Shown here piece after piece: positions 9,371-55,551 of a stretch of 64,000 nt of DNA. The translations under genes and the position numbers were made by a program. The DNA comes from Clostridia bacterium (GTDB lineage: Bacteria > Bacillota > Clostridia > Christensenellales > UBA1242): NCBI GenBank assembly GCA_045594425.1, contig JAZNYK010000007.1, positions 72,786 to 136,785 of the forward strand. The letters are read 5' to 3'. Below the pieces are notes generated by a model. That model did no database searches. It saw only the letters and a list, made by a program, of their open reading frames with translations, and was not told where the DNA came from. Numbering within the stretch: the first letter of the stretch is position 1; each line of letters opens with the position of its first letter.

Positions 9371-11746
9371 TTATCCTCTAACTTCCAAACCATTTTTTGT
9401 TACAAATTCAACAAGGTCTGTTCTAAATTTTTCAATTTCTTCACCTGTTAGAGTGTGGTCAAAACTTGAAAGATTAAATCTTAAAGTTACAGATTTTTTA
9501 TTTCCTAATGTTTCTTTATTTTCATAAATATCAACAAGTTCAAATCCTGATAAAATTCTTGATTTATATTTTGATAAAATCTTTGAAAGTTCTGCATACT
9601 TCATGTTTTCATCTACCAAAATATTATAATCAATTTCAACTGCTTGATATTTTGATACATTTTTAATCTTTTTAGCAAATGCTTTTGTATTTGCAAGTTT
9701 TTCATAATCAACTTCCAAAACAACAACATTAAATCTCTTATCAACCGCCTTTTTAACACTTGGATGAATCACACCCATATATCCATAATCAGCAATTCTT
9801 GACTTAATTCTAAATGAATTCACTGGGTGCAAATATGATGCAGTTTCACCTTCTGAAAGTTCAACATCAACACCAATAATATTTTTTGCAATGTCTGCAA
9901 TTGCTGTTTTCATCTCGGTAAAAAGTTCAAATTCTGATTTCTTTTGACTAGCAAACAAAACCGCTAATCTCTTTTCTTCAATCGAATGATTTTCTTCATC
10001 TAAACCTGAAACAACTCTACCAATTTCAAAAACTCTAACATTTTCATAATTATTTTTATTTTCTTCTAAAGTTCTCACAAGTGTAGGAATCAAAGCACTT
10101 CTAATTCCACTTTGACCAGCATTTGATGAATCTAAAAGTGAAACATAAGATTTCATTTCTATATTATGTTGTTTATTAAATTCTTCATAATTCCAAATAT
10201 AAGAATGAATTTCATTAGCATTGTATTTTTCAGCCAACAACAATTTTGTTGCATATTCATATTCAATTGCAGGTATTGCTTGTTGTGGTTCACAGTCAAA
10301 CATAAGTGTCTTTGGCTTAATGTTATCATAACCATAAAGTCTTGCAACTTCTTCAACCAAATCCTCTTTAATTGAAACATCTTTTGTTGCTCTAAATGAT
10401 GGAACTTCAGCAACAAGTTCACCATCTTTTTCTTTAATTCCAAATTCCAAAGCAGTCAAGGTTTTAACGATAAACTCTTTAGAAATGTCTTCACCAACAA
10501 TTCTTGAAATAAACTCTGGCTTGAAAGCAATTTCAATTTTATCATATTTTTTATGATAGCAGTCACTAAAGCATGATGTAACTTCTGCTTTTTTATCGAT
10601 TTGCTTTAATAAATACAAAATTCTTGAAAGCGCAACAGGTGTTTGTTCTGGGTCGAGTGATTTTTCATATCTTTGTGACGCATCAGTAATCAAACCAATT
10701 GTTCTTGCTGCTTTTCTAATTGTTGCATAATCAAACACAGCCGCTTCAAATAAAACTGAATCTGTATCATCAGAAATACCTGATTTTAAACCACCTTTAA
10801 TACCAGCAATTGCAACGGGGTCTTTATCTTTATCAGAAATAACAAGTGCACCTTCAGGAAGTTTATGTTCTTCACCTTCAAGTGTAAGCATCACTGTGTT
10901 TCCATCTGATTCAATAACATTAATTCCATCAACAATTTTATTATCAAAAGCATGCATTGGAAGACCCACATCAAGCATTACATAGTTAGTAAGGTCTGCA
11001 AGCAAATTAATATCTCTCATTCCTGCATAAATAAGTCTAATTGCCATTTCTCTTGGAGATTTTTTTGCTTCAATATTTTTAACAGAAATTGAAGAATAAC
11101 GATAACAATTATCTGTGTGAATAGCAACAGGAATCTTTGGCAAACTGTCATACTTGCTCAAATCATCAGTAGGCATTTTCTTAAGTTTTCTATCAAAAAT
11201 CGCTGCAAATTCACGAGCAATTCCATAATGACCCCAAAGGTCAGGTCTATTAGTAAGTGATTTGTTATCAATTTCTAAAACAACGTCATCAACTGGCCAA
11301 ACTTCTTTAATATCTTGACCAATCACAACTTCTTCTTTTATATCCATGATGCCTTCATCATCAGCACCAATTCCAAGTTCTGATTCTGCACAGCACATAC
11401 CATAAGACTCAACACCCGCAAGTTTTCCAACTTTAATCTTACCAGCACAAACACTTCCACCAACTTTACAAACCGCAGTAACCATTCCCTCATAAACATT
11501 TGGAGCACCACAAACAATTTGCAATTGTTCTGAACCAACATCAACTTTCAAAATATGCAAGTGATTTGATTCTGGATGATTTTTAACTTCTAAAACCTTT
11601 CCAAAAACAACATCTTTAATATCAGCACCTTTATATTCAACATCTTCAATTTCAGCAGTTGAAAGATTGAATCTCTTAACAAGTTCATCAACTTCAATGC
11701 CAGATAAATCAACGTAATCTTTTATCCAATTAATCGAAACTTTCAT
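9371..11746 (-). CDS. pheT: Phenylalanine--tRNA ligase beta subunit
   Basis: 791 aa with the MKVSINWIKDY N-terminus and tRNA-binding, B3/4, B5 and FDX-ACB order typical of PheT. GGAGAA SD. Confidence 0.95.
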   Translation of the reverse strand: MKVSINWIKDYVDLSGIEVDELVKRFNLSTAEIEDVEYKGADIKDVVFGKVLEVKNHPESNHLHILKVDVGSEQLQIVCGAPNVYEGMVTAVCKVGGSVCAGKIKVGKLAGVESYGMCCAESELGIGADDEGIMDIKEEVVIGQDIKEVWPVDDVVLEIDNKSLTNRPDLWGHYGIAREFAAIFDRKLKKMPTDDLSKYDSLPKIPVAIHTDNCYRYSSISVKNIEAKKSPREMAIRLIYAGMRDINLLADLTNYVMLDVGLPMHAFDNKIVDGINVIESDGNTVMLTLEGEEHKLPEGALVISDKDKDPVAIAGIKGGLKSGISDDTDSVLFEAAVFDYATIRKAARTIGLITDASQRYEKSLDPEQTPVALSRILYLLKQIDKKAEVTSCFSDCYHKKYDKIEIAFKPEFISRIVGEDISKEFIVKTLTALEFGIKEKDGELVAEVPSFRATKDVSIKEDLVEEVARLYGYDNIKPKTLMFDCEPQQAIPAIEYEYATKLLLAEKYNANEIHSYIWNYEEFNKQHNIEMKSYVSLLDSSNAGQSGIRSALIPTLVRTLEENKNNYENVRVFEIGRVVSGLDEENHSIEEKRLAVLFASQKKSEFELFTEMKTAIADIAKNIIGVDVELSEGETASYLHPVNSFRIKSRIADYGYMGVIHPSVKKAVDKRFNVVVLEVDYEKLANTKAFAKKIKNVSKYQAVEIDYNILVDENMKYAELSKILSKYKSRILSGFELVDIYENKETLGNKKSVTLRFNLSSFDHTLTGEEIEKFRTDLVEFVTKNGLEVRG

Positions 11747-11757
11747 CTTTCTTCTCC

Positions 11758-12792
11758 TTACATTTTAGTCTTAAATTGACTCATAACCTTTAAATTATTA
11801 CTGTTCAAATAACGAATGTCATCAAGTCCTGTTCTAATCATAACAAGTCTATCAAATCCAAGACCAAACGCAAAACCATTATATTCTTCTGGGTCAATAC
11901 CAGCCATTCTCAAAACGTTTGGATGAATCATACCACATGGGCAAAGTTCAATCCAACCAGACTTTCCACAAGTGTTGCAACCCTTTCCTCCACAGAATGG
12001 ACACTTTGCATCCATTTCATAACTTGGTTCTGTAAATGGGAAGAATCCAGGACGAAGTCTAACATCAATGTCTTTCTTAAAAAGTGCTTTAAGCATTGCT
12101 TTTTCAAAATAAATAAGGTTAGCAACTGTAATATTCTTTCCAACAACAACACCTTCAACTTGGAAGAATGTGTTTTCATGTCTTGCATCAAGTTGTTCAT
12201 TTCTAAAACATCTTCCTGGGAACAACACCTTGCAAACAGGTCCATATGTTCTAAGTATTCTGTTTTGAGCAGCAGATGTTTGAGTTTTTAAAACTTCGCC
12301 ATTGTCAAGCCAGAATGTATCTTGCATATCACGTGCTGGATGGTTTTTTGGAACGTTTACTGATTCAAAGTTATTATATTCTGTTTCAACTTCTCTGCCA
12401 TCTTCAATAACAAATCCCATATCTTTAAAAATATCAACAACTTGTTTTTGAATAATTGTTCTTGGGTTAAGCGAACCAGTTTTTGTGTCAATTGGAAGCG
12501 AATAGTCAAATTGTCTTGTAGCCTTAATTTCAGCATCAATTGCTTTTTGTGCAAGGTCTACTTTAATCTCATCAATAGATGCTTCAATTTTAGATTTTAA
12601 AGCATTTACCTTTTGACCAAACTCTTTCTTTTGTTCTGCTGGCACTTCTCTAAATTTTGACATTATGTCAGCAACCAAACCCTTTTTACCCAAATATTTC
12701 AATCTGAGCGATTCTAATTCTTGAAGATTAGAAACATTTTTCGAATCTTCATCATATTGTTTTTCAACATCACTAACAATACTTAATTCCAT
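11758..12792 (-). CDS. pheS: Phenylalanine--tRNA ligase alpha subunit
   Basis: Class II motifs (HPARDMQDTF, FPGRCFRNE, GFAFGLGFDRL). GGAGA SD. Confidence 0.95.
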   Translation of the reverse strand: MELSIVSDVEKQYDEDSKNVSNLQELESLRLKYLGKKGLVADIMSKFREVPAEQKKEFGQKVNALKSKIEASIDEIKVDLAQKAIDAEIKATRQFDYSLPIDTKTGSLNPRTIIQKQVVDIFKDMGFVIEDGREVETEYNNFESVNVPKNHPARDMQDTFWLDNGEVLKTQTSAAQNRILRTYGPVCKVLFPGRCFRNEQLDARHENTFFQVEGVVVGKNITVANLIYFEKAMLKALFKKDIDVRLRPGFFPFTEPSYEMDAKCPFCGGKGCNTCGKSGWIELCPCGMIHPNVLRMAGIDPEEYNGFAFGLGFDRLVMIRTGLDDIRYLNSNNLKVMSQFKTKM

Positions 12793-12852: not shown

Positions 12853-13108
12853 AGAAAAGAAAAAGCCTTGCAGTCCTTAACTTAAGGACGCAAGACTTAC
12901 ATTTGCGTGGTACCACCTTAATTCATGAACAAATTTGTTCACCTTATTTTGCTTTAACGATAGCACAAATCGAGATATATTTCTACATCCTGCTCCAGTG
13001 CCGAAATTCATTTTTGCTTCCCAGTATTTTGCTCTCAGCCTACGGCAAAACTCTCTTTCACTTTTTCACAAAAACTACTAAATCACCTTCATAGCATTTA
13101 TAAAAACT
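12853..13108 (-). promoter_or_regulatory. T-box riboswitch leader of pheST (Phe-specific candidate)
   Basis: The minus strand reads AATTAAGGTGGTACCACGC (conserved T-box sequence, about 12905-12922). A terminator hairpin GUCUUGCGUCCUUAA/UUAAGGACUGCAAGGC plus U-run follows (12853-12898). An AGAGAG stem-I element lies near 13052-13057. The candidate UUC specifier is at 13003-13005. Confidence 0.85.
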
Positions 13109-25433: not shown

Positions 25434-27026
25434 TTATGCCAATTCAATTTTATAAACATCTATTTCATAAACAGTATACCATTGTTGTTCAATAACAAAT
25501 GAAGTATCCAAAACACATTTTAATCCACCTGCTTCCAATATTGAAAAATCGTCAAACCTTCCAACAAAATAAACATTCTTGCCTTCAGCAGTATAATTTT
25601 TGATTTGTTCTGTTGAAAGTTTCGGATGATTCACTCCAGTAATATTTTCCCACCAACTAACATCACAACCATCAAGTCCATAAATAAAATGCTGTGTTTG
25701 ATATTCAATTGGATGTTGAACCGCGCCATGGTCAGCAACCACAATATCATCATTTATCGAATTAAAATACGCCACCATGTGCTCATAGTTAGAATTTATA
25801 TACTTTTCGTGTTTGTTAACTTCAACCATATTAATCACAGCGTAAATAGAAAGCACACAAACAACTGCTATTTGAACACAAATATTCAGCCATTTGCAAA
25901 CTTTATTTGCTTTTTCAGTTTTATTTTTTAACAACTTAACAATAAAGTCTTTCAGGCAATATTTAATAAGCAAATAGAAATTATAAACAACGCAAAGATA
26001 AAAAATAAATATACATGGAAGTGTGTATCTCTCAACAAAAATTGGTGTAAGCACAACCGATATCAAAAGCCCCATTCCAATAACAAAGAACATAACAAAT
26101 GGTCCAGATAAAGCAATCCATTTTTGTTTTGTCTGAATTTTTTTGTTAAACAAATTAACAAATAACACAAACAAATACAAACACATCAAAACAATTGACA
26201 TTCCAATGTTATCAAAACAATCAATCAATTTAATTGAAAACACATAATTAAAAATTGCAGCAACGCTATTTGTTGAAATTGTTGGAATCCAATAACCATA
26301 ACTCGATAAATATGCAAACTGACAGCACAAAACTACAAGCCAAGGCAAATAACTAATAACAGCGTAAACAGCATACTTATAGAATGTTAAAAAATACTCT
26401 CTTTCACAAACAAGTGAATACAAAATCATAAACAAAAGTAGTCCTGCAACTGCCATGAGCGCAAAATAATGTGTTAATGCTGCTAGCACAAAATATAACA
26501 CAAACCATCTAAAATCACGAGGTTGCTTATATCTAATTATTTGAATTGAATAATAGAAACATAAAAACACAAAAAGCATTGCAAAGCCATACATTCGAAT
26601 TGTTATGGCATATTCAGAAAATGAACCAAAACAAAATAAAGTTAAAAGTGCAATTCCAACAACAACTCTTGGAAGTGTTTTTGATGCTTTAAATACAACA
26701 AAATAAAACAAAATTGCAAGCCCACAAAAACTAATAACTTTTGACAAAATAACAACGTTGATTGATGGCAACAAAAATGTGAAAATATCCACAAAAAACT
26801 TAATTATAAAATAAAACATTGGAGGATGAACATCCAAAACAGTGTTTATAATAATGTCTAAATAACTGCCATCAATAATATAAAGTGTAAACACTTCGTC
26901 TGATATAACCGACTCAAAAAAGCATTGCCAAAGAGCCACACACATCAAACAAAATGAAACACCCACACACAAATAATAAATAATATTTTCCAGCGTAAGT
27001 TTCTTCTTAATATCGCAAAAATTCAT
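25434..27026 (-). CDS. Polytopic membrane protein, GT-C fold glycosyltransferase candidate (family 39/83, PMT/ArnT-like) with a C-terminal extracytoplasmic domain
   Basis: More than 10 predicted TM helices. The first loop SDEVFTL...DVHPPMFYF resembles the DE...HPP signature of GT39/GT83 enzymes. GAGGG SD. Confidence 0.55.
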   Translation of the reverse strand: MNFCDIKKKLTLENIIYYLCVGVSFCLMCVALWQCFFESVISDEVFTLYIIDGSYLDIIINTVLDVHPPMFYFIIKFFVDIFTFLLPSINVVILSKVISFCGLAILFYFVVFKASKTLPRVVVGIALLTLFCFGSFSEYAITIRMYGFAMLFVFLCFYYSIQIIRYKQPRDFRWFVLYFVLAALTHYFALMAVAGLLLFMILYSLVCEREYFLTFYKYAVYAVISYLPWLVVLCCQFAYLSSYGYWIPTISTNSVAAIFNYVFSIKLIDCFDNIGMSIVLMCLYLFVLFVNLFNKKIQTKQKWIALSGPFVMFFVIGMGLLISVVLTPIFVERYTLPCIFIFYLCVVYNFYLLIKYCLKDFIVKLLKNKTEKANKVCKWLNICVQIAVVCVLSIYAVINMVEVNKHEKYINSNYEHMVAYFNSINDDIVVADHGAVQHPIEYQTQHFIYGLDGCDVSWWENITGVNHPKLSTEQIKNYTAEGKNVYFVGRFDDFSILEAGGLKCVLDTSFVIEQQWYTVYEIDVYKIELA

Positions 27027-27038
27027 TATAACCCTCTT

Positions 27039-28463
27039 TTAGTCTTGTTTTATTGTTTTCATATATCTATTTTTGAACTCAATAAGCAATAGCAAACAGG
27101 CAGTCACTCCAGATGCAACACCTATCACCGACACAATCGCCGATAAAAATCCCTGAATATAATTATAATATATCAAAAACATCATAAAGTATAGAGCATT
27201 TTGAATTAAAGTTGGAATAATCTTTGAAAAACAACCCTTATCAACACAGAAATAAACAACACTAAGCCCCATTGATATAAAATAAAACCTATCAAGCATT
27301 TTTGGCATAAAAAACACCATCACAAATGCAAACAACATTCCAATAAAAACAAAATCATTTTTTGTAAACACATGATTTTTACTAAATTTCAAAACAACAT
27401 ACAAAATAAAAGCCAAAACTGTTAATGTTAAAATAACAAATGAAACTGTAAAAATTTTGCTAATAATTTCCAATGTTTCTGCCGAACAACTTAACACATC
27501 CACAAGCAAAACATTCACTGGATATAACAAATTTGCACATTTTGCAGACAAACCATAATTTGTTGTCGTTTGTCTAAAAAAGACTAAAAGCACATCCAAA
27601 ACAGGTCTTCCTGCAAACACTGGCAACAAATTAACAAAATACATAAGTGGTGCAATCCAAATATCTTTCCACTTTAAGTAATGCTTTCCCTCTTCATCTT
27701 TAACAATAAGCATAACAAACAAAACTGGAACAATAAACAAAAATTGCATTTTAAACGCAAAACTTAAGCCAATAAACATAAATGAAAGTTTTGATTTCTT
27801 TTTTAACGCAAACAAAAATGCTAAAAGTGCAAATGATGTATAAATTGCATCACATTGCCCCCAAGAAGAATATTCCATCAAAAGCACTGGCAAAACCAAA
27901 ATTATCGAAAATCTAACAATAGAAAACTTCTCGTCTTTTATATGTGAAATAATCTTTTCCACAATAAAAGCAAAGAGAATCGAAAACAATAGTGTTAAAT
28001 ATTTAATTGAATAAAGTGCATTCAACCCAGTTTTTGCAAAAAATATCAAAAAGTAATTATACGCTGGCGTATAGTCACTAACATCAACAATACTATAAAG
28101 CGCTTGTGATACAGACGATTTTTCGTATGATTCATACCAAACTTTTAAATAAGTCAAATAATCAAAAGATTCATAATCCATCAACAAAACACAAACCAAA
28201 AAACCACAAAGCAAAGCCAAACAAAGCATCACTCTTTTAATGACACGTTTTTCATCTGTTTTTTTTACAAAAAAGCATCCTGCAACACCTACTAGAGAAA
28301 ACGTTGCAAGCAAAACAAAAAAGTAAGTAATCCCATCACCCGCAAGCCTAACTGGCATAAAAAAGAACGACAAACAAGTCAAGACTGCAACAACCGCAAT
28401 CTCAACCATCAAAAATACATTATTTGCCAAATCTTTTTTTAAATTTTGAATAAATTGTTTCAT
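27039..28463 (-). CDS. Polytopic membrane protein, GT-C candidate (PIG-V/Gpi18/GT87-like), paralog A
   Basis: Shares the blocks DYLTYLK, DVSDYTPAYNY, WGQCDAIYTSFA and KKKSKLSFMFIG..KMQFLFIVP with the 28923-30341 gene. ATG 28463 overlaps the upstream stop (TAATG) and follows a GGGGA SD. Confidence 0.6.
   Translation of the reverse strand: MKQFIQNLKKDLANNVFLMVEIAVVAVLTCLSFFFMPVRLAGDGITYFFVLLATFSLVGVAGCFFVKKTDEKRVIKRVMLCLALLCGFLVCVLLMDYESFDYLTYLKVWYESYEKSSVSQALYSIVDVSDYTPAYNYFLIFFAKTGLNALYSIKYLTLLFSILFAFIVEKIISHIKDEKFSIVRFSIILVLPVLLMEYSSWGQCDAIYTSFALLAFLFALKKKSKLSFMFIGLSFAFKMQFLFIVPVLFVMLIVKDEEGKHYLKWKDIWIAPLMYFVNLLPVFAGRPVLDVLLVFFRQTTTNYGLSAKCANLLYPVNVLLVDVLSCSAETLEIISKIFTVSFVILTLTVLAFILYVVLKFSKNHVFTKNDFVFIGMLFAFVMVFFMPKMLDRFYFISMGLSVVYFCVDKGCFSKIIPTLIQNALYFMMFLIYYNYIQGFLSAIVSVIGVASGVTACLLLLIEFKNRYMKTIKQD
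27296..27343. repeat. 48-nt perfect direct repeat, copy 1
   Basis: GCATTTTTGGCATAAAAAACACCATCACAAATGCAAACAACATTCCAA is identical to 29207-29254. Confidence 0.9.
27592..27865. repeat. High-identity direct repeat, copy 1 (inside GT-C paralog A)
   Basis: Aligns base-for-base at an offset of 1890 nt with 29482-29755 and has only scattered mismatches. Includes a perfect 38-nt run, CCAATAAACATAAATGAAAGTTTTGATTTCTTTTTTAA. Confidence 0.85.
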
Positions 28464-28930
28464 TAAATCCCCGCTTTTGCACACAAATAATTTAACCTTT
28501 CAATTTGTCCAGACTTAATCATTTCAAGTCTATTTAACATCTTTTTTAGTTCAGCCAAATATTCTTTTAATGCATTAAACTCATCAACTAAAAACTCTTC
28601 CGATTCCCCTTCAAATTTCGTGAGTTTAAAATATTCATGAGTAAAATAGTTTCGTTTTTCCAAAAGTGATTTTAGTTTGTTAATTTCATCAAAACTCAAA
28701 CTCTTTGATTCATAAACAACACCAATAAGCGCACCAAATGTCATAGTTTGCATTTTTTCTTTCAAATATTCTGCATCACTAACCACCTGACTGTAAGCAT
28801 CAAGTGTAATTTTTTGATGTCTTCCAAATTCTTTTATAATTTCACTTTTTTCACAAATCTCACCAAGGTCAACTTCAATGTTTTGTGTAACCTCAACAAT
28901 TTTTCCGATAGCACAATAAATCCTATTCAT
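28463..28930 (-). CDS. Small helical cytoplasmic protein with Abi_2/HEPN-like motifs
   Basis: 155 aa, containing MTFGALIGVVY and KRNYFTHEYF (R-x4-H). Start and stop overlap both flanking GT-C genes. Confidence 0.45.
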   Translation of the reverse strand: MNRIYCAIGKIVEVTQNIEVDLGEICEKSEIIKEFGRHQKITLDAYSQVVSDAEYLKEKMQTMTFGALIGVVYESKSLSFDEINKLKSLLEKRNYFTHEYFKLTKFEGESEEFLVDEFNALKEYLAELKKMLNRLEMIKSGQIERLNYLCAKAGI

Positions 28931-30341
28931 TTTCTAATTCCTTTTTATTTTGTTTTACAAAAACATCTTTTGCATATTCAGTCCAGAATTGCCATGCCAA
29001 AATTGCAATATTTGCAAATGCAGAAACAACTCCAACCACCGAAACAAACACAGACACAAATGTCGTTAAATAAATATAGAAATGCAAATACATCATAAAG
29101 AACAATGTGTTACAGCAAAGCACAATGTTAAGCAAAGTTTTTGAAGATTTGTTAACACAGAAATAAACCCAAGTTAAACACATTGAAATATAATAAAATC
29201 TGTCGAGCATTTTTGGCATAAAAAACACCATCACAAATGCAAACAACATTCCAAAAAACAACAAATCTTTTTTATTCAACACTTGCATTTTGTTTCTTTT
29301 AAATATAACAAACAAAATAACAGCCATAATGCAAAGTGTTAAAACCACTTGAAATGCAACAAGCACATTAAACACAGTTGTTCCATGAACAACACCAAGC
29401 AAGTGATAAATATAACATAAATTTCCACAACATCCAGAAATTCTGTCATCACCAACTGTCTGTTTCAAATAAACCATCAATACATCCAAAATTGGTCTTC
29501 CTGCAAGCACAGGCACTAAATTCACCACATACATAAGTGGTGCAATCCAAATGTCTTTCCATTTCAAATAATGCTCTCCATTTTCGTCTTTAACAATAAG
29601 CATAACAAACAAAATTGGAACAATAAACAAAAATTGCATTTTAACAGCAAAACTAAAACCAATAAACATAAATGAAAGTTTTGATTTCTTTTTTAATGCG
29701 AATAATAGTGCAAGCATTGCAAATGATGTATAAATTGCATCACATTGTCCCCAAGCACCAAACTCAATAAACACTGGAGGCAAAACCAAAAACACAACAA
29801 ATCTTAAAAAGTTAAACTTGCTGTTTCTAATATGACAAATAATTTTTTCCAAAACAATACCAAGCAAAATTGAAAACAATAAAGTAACATACTTTATTGC
29901 ATAAAGCGAATTAAAACCCATTTTCGCAATAAAAATCAAAATGTAATTATAAAAAGGAGTGTAATTGCTAACATCAACGATGCTATAAAGTGCATCTTTA
30001 ACCGACCCTTTTGTATAGTTTCCGCACCAGCCTTTCAAAAAAGTCAAATAGTCACAAGTTTCAAAACTTGAATGCAAAAACACAAACAACAGAATTGAAA
30101 CCAAAATAGCATAAAACGAAACAATTTTAAAAGCAGATTCTTTTTTTAAAGCAACCCCACCAAAAACTCCAATTACAGCCAGCGGCACAAAAACCAAAAG
30201 CATATAAACAAGCAAATCTAAATCATATGTGTGCACAGGATAAAAGAAAGATAGTTGCACATTTAAAGCAAAAACCAAAATCAAACTCACAGCAAACACA
30301 ACATAAGACCATTTATTAAAAGTTGCTTTCTTAATTTCCAT
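28923..30341 (-). CDS. Polytopic membrane protein, GT-C candidate (PIG-V/Gpi18/GT87-like), paralog B
   Basis: See paralog A. AGAGG SD; 472 aa. Confidence 0.6.
   Translation of the reverse strand: MEIKKATFNKWSYVVFAVSLILVFALNVQLSFFYPVHTYDLDLLVYMLLVFVPLAVIGVFGGVALKKESAFKIVSFYAILVSILLFVFLHSSFETCDYLTFLKGWCGNYTKGSVKDALYSIVDVSNYTPFYNYILIFIAKMGFNSLYAIKYVTLLFSILLGIVLEKIICHIRNSKFNFLRFVVFLVLPPVFIEFGAWGQCDAIYTSFAMLALLFALKKKSKLSFMFIGFSFAVKMQFLFIVPILFVMLIVKDENGEHYLKWKDIWIAPLMYVVNLVPVLAGRPILDVLMVYLKQTVGDDRISGCCGNLCYIYHLLGVVHGTTVFNVLVAFQVVLTLCIMAVILFVIFKRNKMQVLNKKDLLFFGMLFAFVMVFFMPKMLDRFYYISMCLTWVYFCVNKSSKTLLNIVLCCNTLFFMMYLHFYIYLTTFVSVFVSVVGVVSAFANIAILAWQFWTEYAKDVFVKQNKKELENE
29207..29254. repeat. 48-nt perfect direct repeat, copy 2
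   Basis: Identical to 27296-27343. Confidence 0.9.
29482..29755. repeat. High-identity direct repeat, copy 2 (inside GT-C paralog B)
   Basis: Partner of 27592-27865. Confidence 0.85.
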
Positions 30342-30471
30342 AAAAACCTCTATTTTATCTAATACTTAAATTTTAAATAAATAACCAAACCCTGTCAACA
30401 AACTTGCCATAAACACAGCATTTATGTTCACAAAACACAATAAAAAAACAACTATTAAATAGTCGTTTTTT

Positions 30472-30840
30472 TTATTTTGATACAATCAAATCATCAATAT
30501 AATACAAAAATTCACGATAATCTTTTTCTGGCAATCCATTTGAAGTGTGAACAAAATAATCATCAATTTCAACTTTGTCTAAAGATGACACAAAAACTAT
30601 AGTCGTGTTCCAACCAGAATTAACCCCACCTCTTACTCTGTTTTTGCAAATTTCATTTTCATCAAAAACATACGCCGCATAAAAATCATCGTTTTCCATA
30701 AACCCTTCTGAAACCTCAAAAGGAGTAAATTCTGGATAACTGTCAACGTTTGTCAAATAGTTTCTTAACTCACTAAATTCAAAAATTTTTTGAACTTTAT
30801 ATTTTTCATCTATTTTATTCTCAAAATCAATAATCTTCAT
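30472..30840 (-). CDS. Hypothetical cytoplasmic protein
   Basis: 122 aa from ATG 30840, with a GAGGT SD 8 nt upstream. No family recognised. Confidence 0.5.
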   Translation of the reverse strand: MKIIDFENKIDEKYKVQKIFEFSELRNYLTNVDSYPEFTPFEVSEGFMENDDFYAAYVFDENEICKNRVRGGVNSGWNTTIVFVSSLDKVEIDDYFVHTSNGLPEKDYREFLYYIDDLIVSK

Positions 30841-30900
30841 AAACACTAACCTCAACAACATTATATAACATTACGACACAAACAAAAACAAATTTTAGCA

Positions 30901-30933
30901 AAAAAAGACTTATGATTTCTCATAAGTCTTTTT
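30901..30933. terminator. Terminator closing the tRNA operon (bidirectional shape)
   Basis: Perfect 11-bp stem AAGACTTATGA/TCATAAGTCTT (30905-30915 and 30920-30930) with a 4-nt loop, flanked by A and T runs. Confidence 0.75.
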
Positions 30934-31017
30934 GGTGGGCAGAGATGGATTCGAACCATCGAAGACGAAGTCGACGGATTTACAGTCCGTTGCATTTGGC
31001 CGCTCTGCAATCTACCC
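30933..31017 (-). tRNA. tRNA-Tyr (GUA), long variable arm
   Basis: Manual fold: acceptor GGGTAGA/TCTGCCC, anticodon loop CTGTAAA, T-loop TTCGAAT, encoded CCA; 85 nt. Confidence 0.9.
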
Positions 31018-31028
31018 ATATAAAAAAA

Positions 31029-31103
31029 TGGAGCTGGTGGTCGGAATCGAACCAACAACCGTCTGATTACAAGTCAGATGCTCTACCATTGAGCCACACC
31101 AGC
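31029..31103 (-). tRNA. tRNA-Thr (UGU)
   Basis: Acceptor GCTGGTG/CACCAGC, anticodon loop CTTGTAA, T-loop TTCGATT, encoded CCA. Confidence 0.9.
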
Positions 31104-31135
31104 ATATTAAGTTTTAGCCTCGAAGATTAGAAAAT

Positions 31136-31211
31136 TGGTGCCGCGGGGCGGAATCGAACCACCGACACAGAGATTTTCAGTCTCTTGCTCTACCGACTGA
31201 GCTACCGAGGC
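31136..31211 (-). tRNA. tRNA-Phe (GAA)
   Basis: GCCTCGGTAGCTCAGTCGGTAGAGC..., anticodon loop CTGAAAA, encoded CCA. One acceptor-stem mismatch (U4-C69) by my fold. Confidence 0.9.
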
Positions 31212-31248
31212 ATATACTTATTTTTTTCTAAAAATAAGTAAAAACAAT

Positions 31249-31325
31249 TGGCGACCCGAAACGGGCTCGAACCGTCGACCTCCAGCGTGACAGGCTGGCG
31301 CTCTAACCAACTGAGCTATCGGGCC
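31249..31325 (-). tRNA. tRNA-Asp (GUC)
   Basis: GGCCCGATAGCTCAGTTGGTTAGAGC..., anticodon loop CTGTCAC, encoded CCA. Confidence 0.9.
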
Positions 31326-31350
31326 AAATCATTGATTTGGTTAAAATTTT

Positions 31351-31427
31351 TGGTGGGCCTTCTTGGACTTGAACCAAGGACCAACCGGTTATGAGCCGGT
31401 CGCTCTAACCAACTGAGCTAAAGGCCC
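31351..31427 (-). tRNA. tRNA with CAU anticodon: probably tRNA-Ile2 (lysidine), alternatively elongator tRNA-Met
   Basis: Anticodon loop CTCATAA. The G1-C72 pair and lack of a GGG/CCC anticodon stem exclude the initiator. The TTGGTC variable region and GGTTCAAGTCC T-arm resemble ileX-type tRNAs. Confidence 0.85.
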
Positions 31428-31447
31428 AATTAAGTTTATAACAACTA

Positions 31448-31524
31448 TGGTCGGGGTGGCGAGACTCGAACTCACGACCTCACGGACCCAAACCGCGCGC
31501 GCTACCAAACTGCGCCACACCCCG
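31448..31524 (-). tRNA. tRNA-Pro (UGG)
   Basis: CGGGGTGTGGCGCAGTTTGGTAGCGC..., anticodon loop TTTGGGT, encoded CCA. Confidence 0.9.
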
Positions 31525-47368: not shown

Positions 47369-47974
47369 TTACATCATATCTTTTGATTTCTTTTTAATAT
47401 TACTCTCAATTTTAAACTTGTATAACCATCCATATTCTTTGCGTGCTTCATCATCTGCATTATCATATCTATATGTCACCGCATTAAATGTGTTAACCCA
47501 ATCTTCTTCATGCTTGTATTTGCCAGCATATTTCTTTAAAAATTTGATTGAATATTTTTGAGCGTCACGTTCAATAGATTGATTGTTATACATAACATTG
47601 TCTGTGCTTGAAGAAAAATATCCCATCCAATTTCTCTTCCACCTCTTTGCCGTAAACTCATACCATTTCAAATCTCTATCAACCACATTAAATTGATAAG
47701 CATGTCTTGTTTCATGAGCAATAGTTTCCATGGCATGAAAACGATATCTTGTATCCTCAATAAGTTTTGAACTCAACACAATTTTTTTATTGCCATTAGT
47801 AACCGTAAAAGCACCAAAACAATTCCAATCATCATATCGAAGTTCAAGTTTCAAAGGTTCAATTTTAAGTTTTTTTGCAACCCTCTTTTCAAGTTCAACA
47901 AAACACTTAAACCTTGTGTCATAAGACAATTTTTTCCATTTTTTTAATTTAAATTTTGAAAATAAAAACCACAT
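47369..47974 (-). CDS. Hypothetical protein with HExxH motif (putative zinc metallopeptidase)
   Basis: IAHETRHAYQ in a 201-aa basic protein. GGTGA SD. Family unresolved. Confidence 0.45.
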   Translation of the reverse strand: MWFLFSKFKLKKWKKLSYDTRFKCFVELEKRVAKKLKIEPLKLELRYDDWNCFGAFTVTNGNKKIVLSSKLIEDTRYRFHAMETIAHETRHAYQFNVVDRDLKWYEFTAKRWKRNWMGYFSSSTDNVMYNNQSIERDAQKYSIKFLKKYAGKYKHEEDWVNTFNAVTYRYDNADDEARKEYGWLYKFKIESNIKKKSKDMM

Positions 47975-49360: not shown

Positions 49361-49457
49361 AATTTTATCTCCTTATTACTCTATAAGAATAACAAACTTT
49401 AAGAAAAATCACAACTAAATTAAACAAAAAAAGATGACCGAAGCCATCTTTTTAAAA

Positions 49458-49748
49458 TTATTTATTTTCTGCTGGAATAACACATACTCTCTTTTTGTCT
49501 TTGCCAAATTTTTCAAATTTAACAACGCCATCAATTTTTGCATAGAGTGTGTCATCATCACCGATACCAACATTTTCACCTGGGTGAACATTTGTTCCTC
49601 TTTGACGAACAATGATGTTTCCACCTTTAACTGTTTCACCAGAATATTTCTTAACGCCAAGTCTTTGAGCGTTTGAATCACGACCGTTCTTTGTAGAACC
49701 GCCACCTTTGTGGTGCGCAAAAAGTTGGATATTCATAAACATTGTCAT
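49458..49748 (-). CDS. rpmA: 50S ribosomal protein L27 with N-terminal propeptide
   Basis: ...[20 protein letters not shown]...: the mature L27 core preceded by a Firmicute-type extension. The start overlaps the prp stop (ATGA). Confidence 0.9.
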
Positions 49749-50080
49749 ATGCTTTTAACCTCCAATTCAATATAATCAGAAAAACTTTCATACAAATCAG
49801 AAATTCCACAAAGCATAGTATCCAAAATGGCACTTGCTTGAATTTCTTGCGTTGCATCCAAGTTCTCTGGTAAGGTGAATTTTAAATAACCCATTTCATC
49901 ATCTCTCTTCATTTTAAGTTCAATCATAACAATCATGAGAAGTCCCAAAACTGCTGTTTGAACAATGCTTGAAAGCGATGCGCAAACGATATCTTCACCT
50001 TTTTCTCCGTAGTTAGTGTGACCATCACACTCAACTTCGAAAATCTTATCATTTTTTTTACTTATTGTTACTTTTGTCAT
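49745..50080 (-). CDS. prp: Ribosomal-processing cysteine protease Prp
   Basis: [20 protein letters not shown] (His/Cys dyad context), located between rplU and rpmA. Confidence 0.85.
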
Positions 50081-50098
50081 TTAACTAACTCACAAAAT

Positions 50099-50407
50099 TT
50101 ATTTTTCAATTGAAACAACTTTAAGTTTTGTGAATGGTTGACGATGACCTTGTTTCTTGCGAACATTCTTTTTTGCTTTGTATTTGTAAACAACAACTTT
50201 CTTTTCTTTACCAAATTCCAAAACTTCGCAAACGGCTTTAGCCTTTTTGCCTGTAGAAGTAGCAATTTCAACTTTGTCACCATCAGCAACAAGCAAACAT
50301 GGAAGTTCAACTTTGTCACCAACATTAGCATCAATTTTTTCAGCCTTAAAATAAGTGTTTGGCTCAACTTTGTATTGTTTGCCACCAACTTCAACAATTG
50401 CGTACAT
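50099..50407 (-). CDS. rplU: 50S ribosomal protein L21
   Basis: MYAIVEVGGKQYKV N-terminus. ATG 50407 follows a GGAGAGAGGAGG SD region. Confidence 0.9.
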   Translation of the reverse strand: MYAIVEVGGKQYKVEPNTYFKAEKIDANVGDKVELPCLLVADGDKVEIATSTGKKAKAVCEVLEFGKEKKVVVYKYKAKKNVRKKQGHRQPFTKLKVVSIEK

Positions 50408-50576: not shown

Positions 50577-51431
50577 CTACAGCAAATCGTTTTCCCTAAA
50601 AAACTCAACTTCATTCATCGTTTTTATTTCATTTAAATTTTTATCTAAAAAAACAAACTTAACAAAATGATAATCATCAATAAACTTAAACAGTGAATAA
50701 TTCTTTTCATTTTCACTGACATAAATTGTTCTTTCAATCAAACCCTTTCTTAAACGCATAAACTTTTTTCTTGCAAACAACTGCCTTTTATAAGATGTAT
50801 CCTTGCTGTTTGATAGCATTAAACACGCAAGATTAACACACACAAACCCAAGCGAAAAATCATACTCAAAAAACACTGTAAACAAAAACAAAATAAACAT
50901 AGCCATTAAAAATAAAAATGAAATCTTTTTTGTTTTTTCAAGAGCATCTTTTCTAGAATATTTTTTACTAAAAATTGCAAGCAAAAACCTTCCTAAATCA
51001 AGTGGATAAATTGGCAAAAAATTAAACAAAAATATAGACCAATTTGCAAGCAAAATATCATTTAAAAAATTATAACTTTCTGGATAAAACCAAAACATCA
51101 AATAACAAAAAATAATAACACATAAATTAAAAATTGGACCCGCCAAAACAATTTTAATTTCATCTTCCAAAACAAAATCATCACTACCTTCAAGTGATGC
51201 CCCAAAAAATGTTAAATGGATTTTTTTAGGATAATAGCCAAGTTTTTTTGCAACAAGAAAATGTGTTAATTCATGCAAAACAGTAAATATTGCAAAATAA
51301 AAATAAACCAAAATTTCATCAAGCAAAAAAGCAATAACAAATATCAAAAAGAATGAAAAATCAAACTTAAATAATTTTGCAAAATCAAATATTTTTCGCA
51401 TTTTTTTGCCGTTTTGACGTAAATATTGCAT
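50577..51431 (-). CDS. M50-family site-2 metalloprotease (SpoIVFB-like)
   Basis: HELTHFLVAKKLG (HExxH in a TM helix), a second motif FNFLPIYPLDLG, and multiple TM helices. Start uncertain: 51431 or the internal ATG at 51401. Confidence 0.75.
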   Translation of the reverse strand: MQYLRQNGKKMRKIFDFAKLFKFDFSFFLIFVIAFLLDEILVYFYFAIFTVLHELTHFLVAKKLGYYPKKIHLTFFGASLEGSDDFVLEDEIKIVLAGPIFNLCVIIFCYLMFWFYPESYNFLNDILLANWSIFLFNFLPIYPLDLGRFLLAIFSKKYSRKDALEKTKKISFLFLMAMFILFLFTVFFEYDFSLGFVCVNLACLMLSNSKDTSYKRQLFARKKFMRLRKGLIERTIYVSENEKNYSLFKFIDDYHFVKFVFLDKNLNEIKTMNEVEFFRENDLL

Positions 51432-51460
51432 ATGTTTTTAAATTATATGCAATAAAAGTG

Positions 51461-51703
51461 CTAAAAATCACTAATTTCAAAAATCTCATCAATAACAACA
51501 TCCAGCCTAAAAATCAATCTCAAATCAGACAACTCCTTCACATTAATAAAAACATTTTTATCCAAAAACATACAATACTTTTTCAAAACCTCAAGTAAGT
51601 CATATCTAATATTTTTAAACACACTCGAACTTATTTCCATGTCTTCATAAAAAATTTTTTCATTAACTTCTCTCTCTAGTTTTTTCTTATTCAAACTGTT
51701 CAT
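51461..51703 (-). CDS. minE: MinE-like topological specificity factor
   Basis: FKNIRYDLLEVLKKYCMFLDKNVFINVKE..LRLIFRLDV parallels the E. coli MinE segment [34 protein letters not shown]. ATG 51703 follows an AGGAGA SD and overlaps the minD-like 3' end. Confidence 0.6.
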   Translation of the reverse strand: MNSLNKKKLEREVNEKIFYEDMEISSSVFKNIRYDLLEVLKKYCMFLDKNVFINVKELSDLRLIFRLDVVIDEIFEISDF

Positions 51704-52460
51704 GCAATTTTCTCCTAATAAATCCAAAGAATCCTAAATAGTTTTTATTCATATTATTTTGAACCCTCTTGTTTGTTATGAAAGCATTACAAAAATTCAT
51801 CATTATTTTTGTTTGATTTATTGTTGTGTTTTTATAACTAAAATAATTTCGTTTAAAAAATTTTGGAATAACAAACAGCACTTCAACTTTTAGCAAATTT
51901 TCAATTTCTTCTTGAGTGAAATTTTTTCCATAAATTTGACCTATTAAATCGGCTTTGTTAACCACAACGTTAAACAGATTAATATTGTTATAAAATAAAA
52001 ACTTTTTCCTCAACCTATGAAGTTTCAAAACAGATTCTTTATCATCACCGGTTAACACGCAAATTTCATTTAAAGCCAAAACGATTTCATGACTTTTCTT
52101 GTCCCCCTCATTATAATCAATCAATACATAGTCAAAATTTTCTGATATTTTTTCTATATAAGATTTTATTAATTTAATATGCCGAAAATAATCAAACTGA
52201 AAAATATTAGTTTTCACAAAACTCAATTTGGAAGACACTTTATTTAAAATATACTCTTCATCAAAATCTCCCACTATCCATTCTTTTAAATCCTTTGGAT
52301 GTTTTGTGTTAAACTTTAACGAAAGACTATTATTATTAAAACAGCCATCAAATGCACACACTTTATACCCTTTCATCGACAGTCTAATTGCAAGGTCATA
52401 AACAATAGATGTTTTACCTATTCCACCCGATGTTCCAACAAAACCAATCACTCTGCTCAT
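51687..52460 (-). CDS. minD: MinD/ParA-family ATPase homolog with altered deviant Walker A
   Basis: GTSGGIGKTS aligns with SGKGGVGKTT (signature Lys replaced by Ser). The C-terminal YLGFFGFIRRKL resembles the MinD amphipathic membrane-targeting helix. Confidence 0.7.
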   Translation of the reverse strand: MSRVIGFVGTSGGIGKTSIVYDLAIRLSMKGYKVCAFDGCFNNNSLSLKFNTKHPKDLKEWIVGDFDEEYILNKVSSKLSFVKTNIFQFDYFRHIKLIKSYIEKISENFDYVLIDYNEGDKKSHEIVLALNEICVLTGDDKESVLKLHRLRKKFLFYNNINLFNVVVNKADLIGQIYGKNFTQEEIENLLKVEVLFVIPKFFKRNYFSYKNTTINQTKIMMNFCNAFITNKRVQNNMNKNYLGFFGFIRRKLHEQFE

Positions 52461-52603
52461 ATTAAAATAATATAACGTTTATATGCTCTCACAAATGCTA
52501 ATTTTGACTCATATTGTTTAAAATTGATTAAAATTAAACATTTTATGTTTTTAGTTTGTATCTTCTCGGCAAAATAATATATAATTGTATTAGGAGTGAT
52601 ATT

Positions 52604-53611
52604 ATGTCAACTTTTTATATCGGTATAAAACTTGGTTCAACAACCACTTGCATTTATAAATCAGAAAATGGTCTTGTTTTAAAAGAAGCAAGCCTTATTG
52701 CTATGCCAACAAACTTAAAATCTCGTGAAGTTAAGGCACTTGGCAACGATGCAAAAAGATTAATTGGAAGAGTTCCTGCAAACATCACTATTGTTTCACC
52801 TATTTCAAATGGTGTTATTCAATATGAAGACTTAGCGGTTCTTATGCTTAAAGGCTTTTTGAAAAAAGTTTTCCCATCAAAATCTATCGGTCAAAACATC
52901 AAAGCCATTGTAACAACACCAATTGGTCTTTCACCTGCTGAAAAAAAGCAATATGAAACAATGTGCTACAAAGCAGGCATAGCAGATGTTTTTCTTGTTC
53001 CTGATGTTATTTCATACGCCGTTGGAAATGGAATTGATATTCAAAGTGAGATTTCTAATTTAATTGTAAATATTGGTGGCGACACAACAAACATTGCAAC
53101 AATTTCAAATTATTCAATAATAAACGGCTACACACTTTCAATCGGCGGAAATATCATAAATGTTGCAATCGCAAAATATATTGAAGAAACATATAATATT
53201 TTTATAAGCACTGAACAAGCCGAGCATTTAAAATATGAAATATGTTCATTGTTTGAAACTTATTCAATTGACTATGATATCATTGGTTTAAACAAATCAA
53301 CCCAACTTAAAGAAACAATAACAATTAATTCTTCTGAAATTTACCCTATCGTTAAACACTATTATCAAAAAATAGCCGAAGCAATTAACTCAATAATTCA
53401 ATCAAGCGACCCTGAAGTTATATCAGATATTTCAAAAAATGGAATTTATTTTTACGGAAGCGGTTCTGCAATGATTGGTCTTGAAAAATTCATGGCTGAA
53501 CAAACTTCTTTCAAAATAAATTCACCAGACACAAGCAGGTCAAATATGCTCGGAACAGGAGTTCTTATCAAGTATCCTCAACTGCTAAAAAAGATACTCA
53601 AAAACACATAA
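52604..53611 (+). CDS. mreB: MreB-like actin-fold protein with substituted nucleotide-binding motifs
   Basis: Colinear with MreB (ALGNDAKRLIGRVPANITIVSPISNGVI). Phosphate-1 reads IGIKLGSTTT, phosphate-2 reads NIGGDTTN and the adenosine motif reads YGSGSAMIG. ATG 52604 follows an AGGAG SD. Confidence 0.8.
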   Translation: MSTFYIGIKLGSTTTCIYKSENGLVLKEASLIAMPTNLKSREVKALGNDAKRLIGRVPANITIVSPISNGVIQYEDLAVLMLKGFLKKVFPSKSIGQNIKAIVTTPIGLSPAEKKQYETMCYKAGIADVFLVPDVISYAVGNGIDIQSEISNLIVNIGGDTTNIATISNYSIINGYTLSIGGNIINVAIAKYIEETYNIFISTEQAEHLKYEICSLFETYSIDYDIIGLNKSTQLKETITINSSEIYPIVKHYYQKIAEAINSIIQSSDPEVISDISKNGIYFYGSGSAMIGLEKFMAEQTSFKINSPDTSRSNMLGTGVLIKYPQLLKKILKNT

Positions 53612-53771: not shown

Positions 53772-54500
53772 ATGGAATCTAAAAGCAAGAAAAAAACCAT
53801 ATTAACAATCACTTTAGTTGCTGTTATTGCTATTGTGGCAGTTATCGCGGTGTTTATTGTTGCAAAAAATATCAAATCAAAATCATCTTCAAATGATTCA
53901 GCAACAAATGTTTCATCTAGCATTGAAGACAGATTATTTCAAGCAAACATAGACATTATTGAAGGAAAAATTCCTCACAACTATGACGGAAACTACAAAT
54001 TTAAATACGTTAGTTCAATCACCTTCAATGATAAATTGACTTCAAACCAAATTAAAGACATCGCAAAACAACACGGAACAAAAGACCCAAATGGTTTAAC
54101 TAGCATCATTGAAAGAAAGAAACTTAATGAAGTAAATAATAGCAATGAAGTAATTGTTTTAAAGAATGGAGTTTACACAAGAAGCACTAAAACCGTTATT
54201 GAAAAAGGCGAATTCGTTGGAAACGATGACCTCGCAGAAGTTAGAGTTTATAAACGTGGCGGAAAAATTTTAAACACACCTGAAAAATTTGAAATGTCAA
54301 AAACTTGTATCAAAGGTGAACAAATTTCAGAGCCAACATCAGATACTGCAAACCCACTTCGCACACACATCTATCTTTACAAAAATTATTGTAGCAGTGC
54401 AGACCCAAATCTTGTGCTTTTTACAATTACATATGTCTATGAATTGTTGCCAGACACAACATTAGAAATTCCTAATTCAAAACTTGAAGTTGACCTTTAA
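53772..54500 (+). CDS. Membrane-anchored secreted protein of unknown function
   Basis: GGGAG SD, an N-terminal TM/signal-anchor helix (ILTITLVAVIAIVAVIAVFIV) and an S-rich linker. Confidence 0.55.
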   Translation: MESKSKKKTILTITLVAVIAIVAVIAVFIVAKNIKSKSSSNDSATNVSSSIEDRLFQANIDIIEGKIPHNYDGNYKFKYVSSITFNDKLTSNQIKDIAKQHGTKDPNGLTSIIERKKLNEVNNSNEVIVLKNGVYTRSTKTVIEKGEFVGNDDLAEVRVYKRGGKILNTPEKFEMSKTCIKGEQISEPTSDTANPLRTHIYLYKNYCSSADPNLVLFTITYVYELLPDTTLEIPNSKLEVDL

Positions 54501-54516
54501 TAAAGGAGATTTAATT

Positions 54517-55551
54517 ATGAAAACATTTATAAAATCTTTAACAAAAGCATTAGCAGTTGTATTTATTATTTCATTCACCATTCTTCCATTTTCTGGATGT
54601 TCAAATAAATCTGCAAACAAAACAGCAAACAACACAACAATTGAAAATATTGCAGATACAGACCAAAACGAAGAAACCGCTGAAAACGTTTCAGACAAAG
54701 AAAAAGAAGAAACACCTGAACATGAATCAGTTGAACTTAACGGAATTTATAAACTTGCAAGACCAATGACTTATAAAGACACTTGGTATGAAAACGAAGA
54801 AGAAGTTATTAAATTTTTTGAAACAAGAGATATTAATGGCGTTTATAATTTCTTAAGAAAATTAAACTTTGAAGAAAACGTGAACAACGTTCACAAAGAA
54901 ATTAATGAAACACCTTATGAAATTATGGCTCGTTTTAACAAAACAATCATTTCAAAACTTTTAAATAAAGAAAACACTTCAACTTATGTGCATACAGGTG
55001 AAAATTTTGTTATAGACAACAAATCAATTTGGGTTGAAGTTGATGAAGACGGAAACACTTTCCTTTATTCTCAATTCACATACGTAAATGATAGCAACCA
55101 AATTGTTCTCACCCCACTTTATGTTAAATATCCAATGACAAAAGTTGCTGGTTCTGAAAACATTTTCACAGGCTATACATACATCTACAAAGCCGAAACT
55201 GCAAAAATTGTTATTGATGGAACAAACAACATTTCTAAAGATGATGCAACAAAACTTGTTTCAGAAATGTTTGACATTGATAGCGAAGTTGAAAACAAAA
55301 CAGATGCTGTTGTTGAGATTTTAAAAGACTGGAAATTTATGATTTCTACAGACCTTTCAAAAATCACAATCTTAAATTCAGATGGTTCATTCACATACAC
55401 AAACCTTGAAAACAATGCTTACACGGTTAATGGAATCACATTTGAACTTTCACATAGAGTTATTGATTTGGAAACAAACACAGAAAAAATAGTGTTTGTT
55501 ATCGAAGTTGATGGTGACATCATCTTTACATTCTCATTTGTGGCACTTTAA
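54517..55551 (+). CDS. Lipoprotein of unknown function
   Basis: ATG 54517 follows an AAGGAG SD. Signal peptide with lipobox PFSGC. Confidence 0.6.
   Translation: MKTFIKSLTKALAVVFIISFTILPFSGCSNKSANKTANNTTIENIADTDQNEETAENVSDKEKEETPEHESVELNGIYKLARPMTYKDTWYENEEEVIKFFETRDINGVYNFLRKLNFEENVNNVHKEINETPYEIMARFNKTIISKLLNKENTSTYVHTGENFVIDNKSIWVEVDEDGNTFLYSQFTYVNDSNQIVLTPLYVKYPMTKVAGSENIFTGYTYIYKAETAKIVIDGTNNISKDDATKLVSEMFDIDSEVENKTDAVVEILKDWKFMISTDLSKITILNSDGSFTYTNLENNAYTVNGITFELSHRVIDLETNTEKIVFVIEVDGDIIFTFSFVAL

Follow-up and report, generated by a model that had tools for sequence, protein, structure and literature searches.

MinD and MinE are the textbook case of ATP-driven protein patterning, and to our knowledge every described role of MinD requires ATP-dependent dimerisation together with MinE-stimulated hydrolysis. 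TadZ carries an atypical Walker A motif and dimerises independently of nucleotide. The TadZ/CpaE proteins of Tad pili, members of the MinD/ParA superfamily, are thought to serve as localisation hubs rather than as patterning motors (PMC11407121), and in McdA, where the signature Lys is absent, K151 at the N-terminus of helix 8 makes the trans contact (PMC6582323). The 64-kb stretch of Clostridia contig JAZNYK010000007.1 analysed here (GenBank assembly GCA_045594425.1; 64,000 nucleotides, hereafter the window) encodes on its minus strand a 257-amino acid (aa) protein with a MinD fold and a degenerate nucleotide site (51687..52460), followed by an 80-aa MinE-like protein read from an ATG at 51703 (51461..51703). 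The pair is concluded to belong to an undescribed MinD/MinE subfamily whose members have persisted although their ATPase site was abandoned. The favoured reading, given a probability of roughly 0.55, is that the two genes descend from minD-minE and that the MinD component, as a pseudo-ATPase or a non-cycling MinD, is no longer an ATP-driven switch and forms a static membrane scaffold with its MinE-like partner.

Nucleotide site of the MinD-like protein and its family

The initial annotation had singled out the loss of the signature Lys, and alignment with canonical MinDs bears this out: the degenerate Walker A motif of the window protein (GTSGGIGKTS, residues 9-18; 52407..52436, minus strand) has Thr10 in place of the first Gly and Ser11 in the signature-Lys column, with the P-loop Lys16 kept. 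The reported FDGC in place of the MinD motif is likewise upheld by the alignment of the switch I region (residues 36-47, AFDGCFNNNSLS; 52320..52355, minus strand), in which the first Asp, D38, is present and the catalytic D40 is Cys, canonical relatives reading DxDxGLNNLD; the Aquifex structures 4v02 and 4v03 themselves differ at the switch-I Asp (DAAIG versus DADIG). In the window sequence LIDYNEGD the Walker B Asp is retained and the switch II PAG has become N-E-G, the family consensus being N-x-F, and helix-7 R151 is Leu. From these residues, the window protein would be unable to run the MinD cycle.

The absence of the signature Lys is a real anomaly but an incomplete description of the change, as D40, PAG and often the P-loop are also lost across the family. 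A profile search of 1.84 billion representatives recovered 33 clusters (50% identity) at E ≤1e-30 from uncultured Clostridia, with a sharp score gap after the family, from E of about 5e-30 to 4e-23, where canonical MinDs begin. Motifs were counted in shallow alignments of 42 full-length family members and 22 canonical relatives, with E. coli numbering. The signature Lys (K11), whose distribution in relatives the initial annotation had proposed to establish, is kept in only 9/42 family members and in 22/22 canonical relatives, and the P-loop Lys (K16) in 28/42 and 22/22, respectively. A GGxGK[ST] core is intact in 22 of the 42, including the window protein, and in about 10 no P-loop can be recognised any longer (GVGKNCDVEN, SVDDFYEKSK and SNDNCW--RE are examples). 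The entropy of the P-loop columns stands at 1.80 bits in the family, close to the mean over its columns, and at 0.17 bits in canonical relatives. D38 is present in all 42 members. The catalytic switch-I Asp (D40) is found in a single family member and in 21/22 canonical relatives; the switch II PAG in none of the family, usually being N-x-F, as against P in 21/22, A in 20/22 and G in 22/22 canonical relatives; and helix-7 D152 in 0/42 as against 22/22.

In a neighbour-joining tree built without the P-loop columns, and lacking support values, the family forms one clade beside the canonical MinDs bearing the tail motif KKY.G..G.IRR, with the members that retain an intact KGGxGK[ST] dispersed across it; parsimony requires at least 9-10 independent state changes each for K11, K16 and the GGxGK[ST] core. 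The simplest history consistent with these sequences would be a single loss of the catalytic residues at the root of the family, after which the P-loop was free to drift. Where the initial annotation had allowed for a different cycle, the family-wide motifs argue that the ATP cycle itself, beyond the signature Lys, has probably been abandoned. Scans of genome and metagenome contigs with the clade alignment returned one unrelated match each (a Woesearchaeota MinD-like protein and a 26%-identity fragment), and literature searches found no such family described, a weak negative since 'MinD' also matches 'mind'.

Ancestry and chromosomal setting of the pair

The MinD-like open reading frame (ORF), with the N-terminus MSRVIGFVGTSGGIGKTS, is matched in Pfam by the generic AAA_31/CbiA models, and its scores against the NCBIfam models minD_bact (TIGR01968; 32.5 bits, cut-off 212.9) and minD_arch (47.1 bits, cut-off 201.75) fall below threshold. 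An AlphaFold2 (AF2) model built with 29 family sequences in the alignment has a mean predicted local distance difference test (pLDDT) score of 90.7, and its best Foldseek match is Aquifex MinD (4v02; E 1e-12, template-modelling (TM) score 0.76/0.80), with archaeal MinD, FlhG and E. coli MinD (TM 0.74) among the further top structures; sequence search of the PDB also places Aquifex MinD first (E 2e-13). Assignment to a different ParA subfamily, the outcome that would have displaced the Min interpretation, finds no backing in these comparisons, in which the best matches by sequence and by fold are to MinD, the gene being moreover the positional orthologue of canonical MinD. Identity as FlhG, BcsQ, ParA or MipZ was rejected on the same grounds, together with a synteny that is that of minD. 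The assignment of the protein to the MinD fold, and not to another ParA subfamily, is supported.

The amphipathic C-terminal segment described in the initial annotation is recovered as a predicted helix: AF2 places residues 243-254 of the segment NYLGFFGFIRRKLHEQFE in a helix with a hydrophobic moment of 0.53 (0.38 for the E. coli MinD tail), a value for a short peptide that does not exceed those of shuffled sequences (p=0.46). The tail as a whole (residues 241-257, YLGFFGFIRRKLHEQFE; 51690..51740, minus strand) resembles the membrane-targeting sequence of MinD and ends in a family-specific [YH]E[KQ][FY]E, and the model is consistent with a membrane-targeting helix. A tail motif, Y.G..G..RR, is common to the MinD-like family and its canonical relatives in the alignment, and the nearest canonical MinDs (P0006, P0041 and following, P0193-196) combine complete ATPase motifs with the unusual tail KKY.G..G.IRR.

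The overlapping 80-aa ORF, previously proposed to be MinE-like, scores weakly when taken singly (Pfam MinE, PF03776: 18.1 bits, E 0.0027, cut-off 25; TIGR01215: 17.9 bits, cut-off 49.3), and gains its standing from the family: eight of nine orthologues match Pfam MinE independently, the top four PDB sequences retrieved by the MinE-like profile are all MinE, proteins annotated with PF03776 are retrieved by the profile at E 1e-9 to 1e-8, and hhalign aligns it with E. coli MinE at E 2.4e-4. The AF2 model comprises a helix (residues 26-40) and two strands (51-57 and 63-69) with a core pLDDT of about 90, corresponding to the conserved C-terminal helix and beta-hairpin. Foldseek returned no significant match for this 80-aa model, MinE structures appearing at ranks 19, 21 and 28, with 1ev0 best by TM score (target 0.65). 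The MinE homology of the small partner is supported by these sequence and model comparisons. Its poorly conserved N-terminus, MNSLNKKKLEREVNEK, is polar and charged, aligns after the MALLDFFL of E. coli MinE and includes no hydrophobic membrane-targeting helix. The AKE.L-type region of E. coli MinE contacts and activates MinD; an AKERL-type contact motif is not conserved in the family, the corresponding region being modelled at a confidence of 48-61, and the canonical MinE proteins of L004 and L008 read AKEIL and VKEAL. A polar, variable N-terminus beside a retained C-terminal domain is what might be expected if ATPase activation were irrelevant but binding or dimerisation were still needed.

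The ATG at 51703 is the preferred start of the MinE-like gene, with an AGGAG Shine-Dalgarno sequence 8 nucleotides (nt) upstream; the TTG-extended ORF (51461-51727) would encode 88 aa. The AGGAG (51712-51716) lies in Arg-Arg codons of the MinD-like tail and, with the 17-nt gene overlap (51687-51703), makes up a putative translational-coupling element (51687..51716, minus strand); the same 17-nt overlap occurs in loci L001, L005, L006, L007 and L009, whereas canonical relatives overlap by 1-4 nt. Overlap and Shine-Dalgarno placement point to translational coupling. One consequence is dual coding, the terminal [YH]E[KQ][FY]E of the MinD-like protein being read from the same bases as the M[KN]SLN with which the MinE-like protein starts (YEKFE and MKSLN in the window). 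As separate observations, the MinE-like ORF of L005 (10761-11024) was called through an in-frame TGA as an 87-aa protein, which looks like a gene-caller artefact; and recoding of TGA in the window, suspected because no ORF of at least 200 aa ends in it (33 end in TAA, 9 in TAG), was rejected, as prp and others end in TGA and reading it as sense extends no real gene.

The neighbouring genes named in the initial annotation, an M50 protease and rplU-prp-rpmA, are present, but the epithet 'SpoIVFB-like' derives from gene order, the 284-aa intramembrane metalloprotease (50577..51431, minus strand) matching only the general Peptidase_M50 family (41 bits). It begins 29 nt (51432-51460) downstream of the MinE-like gene and adjoins the pair in all family loci. 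Beyond it on the same strand lie rplU (50099-50404), prp (49745-50080) and rpmA (49458-49748), spanning 49458..50404 and identified by the Pfam families L21, Prp and L27, and a terminator-like hairpin after rpmA (49428-49453). On the other side, a 143-bp divergent intergenic region (52461..52603), with weak promoter-like matches no more frequent than in shuffled sequence, separates the MinD-like gene from an MreB-like gene on the plus strand (52604..53611; 335 aa from an ATG with AGGAG upstream), which matches Pfam MreB_Mbl at 233 bits and falls under the NCBIfam cut-offs (228 versus 293 bits). Gene order is identical in seven of seven family loci (rnf-ppx-two unknown genes-mreB, divergent from MinD-like-MinE-like-M50-rplU), each with its MinE-like ORF, including P0036 and P0037, in which P-loops are unrecognisable and the MinD-like proteins lack a Pfam match.

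Canonical MinDs occupy the same slot in relatives: a rumen contig (L004) has mreB divergent from minD-81aa-M23-M50, and a Christensenellales metagenome-assembled genome (L010, GCA_051889995.1) has minD-75aa-M23-M50 with SpoIVA nearby. Between the window and L004, MreB is 45% and M50 40% identical, against 26% for MinD and 17% for MinE. This shared slot, with flanking identities above those of the pair, argues that the pair corresponds by position to minDE, as its orthologue, and that its evolution has far outpaced that of the genes around it. The arrangement also agrees with the established B. subtilis order minCD-spoIVFA-spoIVFB-rplU-ysxB-rpmA. The ancestral Firmicutes MRE/MIN cluster matches the neighbourhood of the pair (PMC8136486), and the suggestion that the pair is a Min remnant survives in that sense, as a MinD-derived and MinE-derived pair in an ancestral MRE/MIN-spoIVF-rplU neighbourhood with no adjacent minC. 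An M23 (SpoIVFA-like) gene stands between minE and M50 in the canonical loci (L004 7452-8072; L010 10271-10858; L011 676-1296) and is absent from all seven degenerate-pair loci.

Several other features of the window and related loci were recorded. Downstream of the MreB-like gene, in place of mreC/mreD, are two plus-strand genes without a Pfam family (53772-54500 and 54484-55551), one with an N-terminal membrane anchor and the other with a Cys-terminated signal like that of a lipoprotein; every family locus has the two genes. A 201-aa protein (47369-47974, minus strand) with an HExxH-like motif, AHETRHAYQ, and a weak SprT-like match (E 1.5e-4) is encoded beside an OGG glycosylase gene in family loci. 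In L010, the region 8300-9213, about 900 bp upstream of canonical minD, holds no ORF longer than 61 aa and could be a non-coding RNA or a long leader. Five consecutive minus-strand ORFs without Pfam matches (25434-30861; 530, 481, 155, 472 and 129 aa) lie just upstream of a six-tRNA cluster (30933-31524), in a region whose AT skew is markedly positive (+0.26 and +0.15), a feature that sets it apart within the window. A T-box leader (12881-13101, minus strand; 105 bits) precedes pheS-pheT (11758-12792 and 9371-11746). The window has a G+C content of about 30%, and the ctsR-mcsA-mcsB-clpC operon, T-box, Prp and FloA all fit Bacillota; its ABC-F protein shares at least 90% identity with metagenome-assembled proteins in NCBI bearing the label 'Clostridia bacterium'. 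The sample codes of related contigs (WILK20, XIEF21 and TONG22) may denote studies of the ruminant gut.

A proposed static scaffold and its alternatives

Under the proposed mechanism, ATP hydrolysis, and hence MinE-stimulated release from the membrane, would have disappeared in the ancestor of the family, and nucleotide binding would later have become dispensable. The MinD-like protein would be held at the membrane through its amphipathic tail; monomeric MinD variants of B. subtilis bind the membrane, with ATP binding needed mainly for fast detachment (PMC13246001), and by this precedent a tail-bearing MinD-like protein without an ATP cycle should be a long-lived membrane resident. It would there form a stable complex with a dimeric MinE-like protein, in a fixed proportion set through the 17-nt overlap and the ribosome-binding site in the tail codons, and this complex would serve envelope growth or division as a static scaffold or adaptor, not as an oscillator or gradient former. 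Candidate targets include MreB, the M50 protease, FtsZ through an unlinked MinC, or some other partner; the divergent mreB arrangement, the loss of M23 in exactly the degenerate-pair loci and the M50 neighbour are leads to the target, not evidence for it. In its full form, the proposal of a Min system without ATP, that is, a stable nucleotide-independent membrane complex of MinD-derived and MinE-derived proteins with a new role in envelope organisation in uncultured gut Clostridia, is tentative and falls slightly short of even odds.

A number of points weigh against a scaffold of this kind. The window P-loop retains GGIGKT, and D38, N44, D115 and N168 are conserved; with T10, S11, C40 and no PAG but with K16 kept, the window protein may bind nucleotide and perhaps hydrolyse it slowly in an unconventional manner, and about a fifth of the family has a complete KGGxGK[ST]. 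Nucleotide binding, dimerisation and membrane binding are judged from sequences and models, the scaffold role and its target being pure inference. Dual coding means that conservation of the terminal YEKFE is not assignable to one protein. The neighbour-joining tree carries no support values, the synonymous divergence used in estimating selection is near saturation, as given below, and the E. coli reference sequences served for numbering only and agree with the PDB alignments. The genome is viewed through 64 kb, and a minC or a second canonical minD may exist elsewhere in it.

A further such point is the candidate substitute lysine. The initial annotation had allowed that an alternative lysine might occupy the signature position; in the family alignment none is conserved across the whole family, but K141 (GDDKES; codon 52038..52040, minus strand) is Lys in 10/10 members of the window's subclade and mostly Glu in other subclades. 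It sits in the N-terminal turn of the helix-7 equivalent, where the AF2 helix of the window protein begins (residues 141-154), and could act like the substitute lysine of McdA, a resemblance of position that is suggestive. The protein might then still be an ATP switch, in which GGIGKT binds ATP, K141 replaces the signature Lys in the sandwich dimer and the MinE-like protein regulates slow membrane cycling. Such a switch would be in keeping with the intact GGxGK[ST] core of the window and 22 of the 42 members, with the invariant D38 and with a lysine that is invariant in the ten-member subclade and absent elsewhere, and McdA offers a precedent, its signature Lys being replaced by a lysine that stands at the start of a distant helix (PMC6582323); but McdA keeps its Walker A Lys and catalytic Asp, while D40 is missing in 41/42 family members and PAG in all, the putative equivalence of K141 and K151 is one of position, and of the ten subclade members, all with K141, four have lost the P-loop Lys (P0004, Thr; P0187, Gln; P0015 and P0189, Val), so that the conserved role of K141 is unlikely to be an ATP contact. 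A surviving ATP switch is considered unlikely.

The genomic setting bears on a second alternative, in which the pair is an accessory to a canonical-style Min system with an unlinked MinC or a second MinD, serving as a specialised regulator, for instance a dominant anchor at the membrane or a variant specific to sporulation and tied to M50. The statement that no MinC-like ORF lies on either side of the pair extends to the entire window, where neither MinC nor DivIVA was found among 66 non-overlapping ORFs of at least 70 aa, with permissive thresholds applied to those unannotated. This absence tells against an accessory role and is tempered by the 64 kb of genome in view and by the canonical relatives L004, L008 and L010, in none of which does minC adjoin minD, so that the minC of this lineage, if present, is unlinked. 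The ancestral neighbourhood ties min to spoIVFA/B, and SpoIVA is encoded near the L010 locus, both in keeping with such a role; the gene nevertheless fills the minD slot itself, as a positional orthologue rather than an extra copy, and the helix-7 residues through which MinD binds MinC and MinE have been altered (no family member has D152, and the window protein has Leu for R151). An accessory role of this kind is held to be improbable.

Maintenance of the pair is apparent from comparison of the window with its 82%-identical L009 orthologue, in which the two genes have ratios of non-synonymous to synonymous substitution rates (dN/dS) of 0.10 (MinD-like) and 0.34 (MinE-like), compared with 0.035 for MreB and about 0.12 for M50, at a dS of 0.89 that is near saturation. 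The MinD-like proteins remain full-length (244-271 aa) throughout the roughly 33 clusters defined at 50% identity, and the family has conserved residues of its own, with Y91 invariant and F89, K200, N205 and N230 also conserved. On these comparisons the MinD-like/MinE-like pair is kept under purifying selection and is not decaying. A functionless remnant, two ORFs slowly eroding after Min was lost from the lineage, would fit the degenerate ATPase motifs, a divergence far faster than that of the flanks (26% and 17% versus 45% and 40% identity) and the lack of a minC nearby, but is highly improbable given these dN/dS values, lengths and family-specific residues, the confident fold model (pLDDT 90.7), the conserved overlap and Shine-Dalgarno site and the retention of the partner in 7/7 loci.

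Should the static scaffold reading prove true, this would be the first MinD-MinE module to persist in such a form, and a family in which the catalytic residues were lost once and the P-loop eroded about 10 times independently would amount to a natural experiment in pseudoenzyme evolution. If the nucleotide site is dispensable, MinD and MinE would have an ATP-independent function worth keeping, the natural 'dead' variants would separate the scaffold and switch roles of MinD, and the ParA/MinD superfamily would gain another of its few pseudo-ATPases. There is also a warning for annotation, as the family is caught only by the generic AAA_31/CbiA models or by no model, and would be labelled 'MinD' or 'hypothetical'.

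Comparison with described systems

Bacterial MinD (TIGR01968; E. coli 3Q9L, Aquifex 4V02/4V03) shares with the window protein its fold (TM 0.74-0.80), length, N-terminal M-x-R-I-I beta-strand, D38, N44, Walker B Asp, the Asn of the VNK/VNR strand and a predicted amphipathic helix in the C-terminal tail, as well as the slot beside the mre genes and upstream of minE and spoIVF-rplU. The window protein differs in replacing the signature Lys, the first Walker A Gly, Asp40, PAG and D152, with the P-loop lost in family relatives, in having no MinC adjacent to the pair, and in a score of 32.5 bits against a cut-off of 212.9. For the partner, described MinE proteins (PF03776; E. coli 1EV0/3R9J, N. gonorrhoeae 2KXO) have a C-terminal helix and beta-hairpin core, the topological-specificity domain, with which that of the window protein aligns (a pattern ending ..ID versus FKNIRYDLLEVLKKY), and share a length of about 80 aa and a position directly downstream of minD, whereas the window partner falls below the Pfam threshold (18 versus 25 bits), has no hydrophobic N-terminal helix and does not conserve the activation motif.

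TadZ/CpaE differs from the window protein in its extra N-terminal receiver-like domain, its location in tad loci and its want of a MinE-like partner and of a MinD-type tail, and is not preferentially matched by the window protein. McdA (PMC6582323) has in common with it a Ser/Thr at the signature-Lys position and a lysine at the start of a distant helix (K151; K141, in a comparable place, in the window subclade), but is a nucleoid-binding protein in which Walker A Lys, catalytic Asp and ATPase activity are all retained, with a partner, McdB, unrelated to MinE; the window family has lost the catalytic Asp and switch II, and relatives can do without the P-loop Lys, the window protein itself keeping K16 and the Walker B Asp.

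The nearest relatives are the canonical pairs of Christensenellales-type Clostridia (P0006/L004, P0195/L008 and L010), which share the tail KKY.G..G.IRR, a short MinE (75-81 aa) without an obvious N-terminal membrane helix, the order mreB divergent from minD-minE-...-M50 and the absence of an adjacent minC. They are set apart by what they keep, namely SGKGGVGKTT, DxDxGLNNLD, DCPAG and the helix-7 RD in MinD, AKE.L in MinE and the M23 gene, and by an overlap of 1-4 nt.

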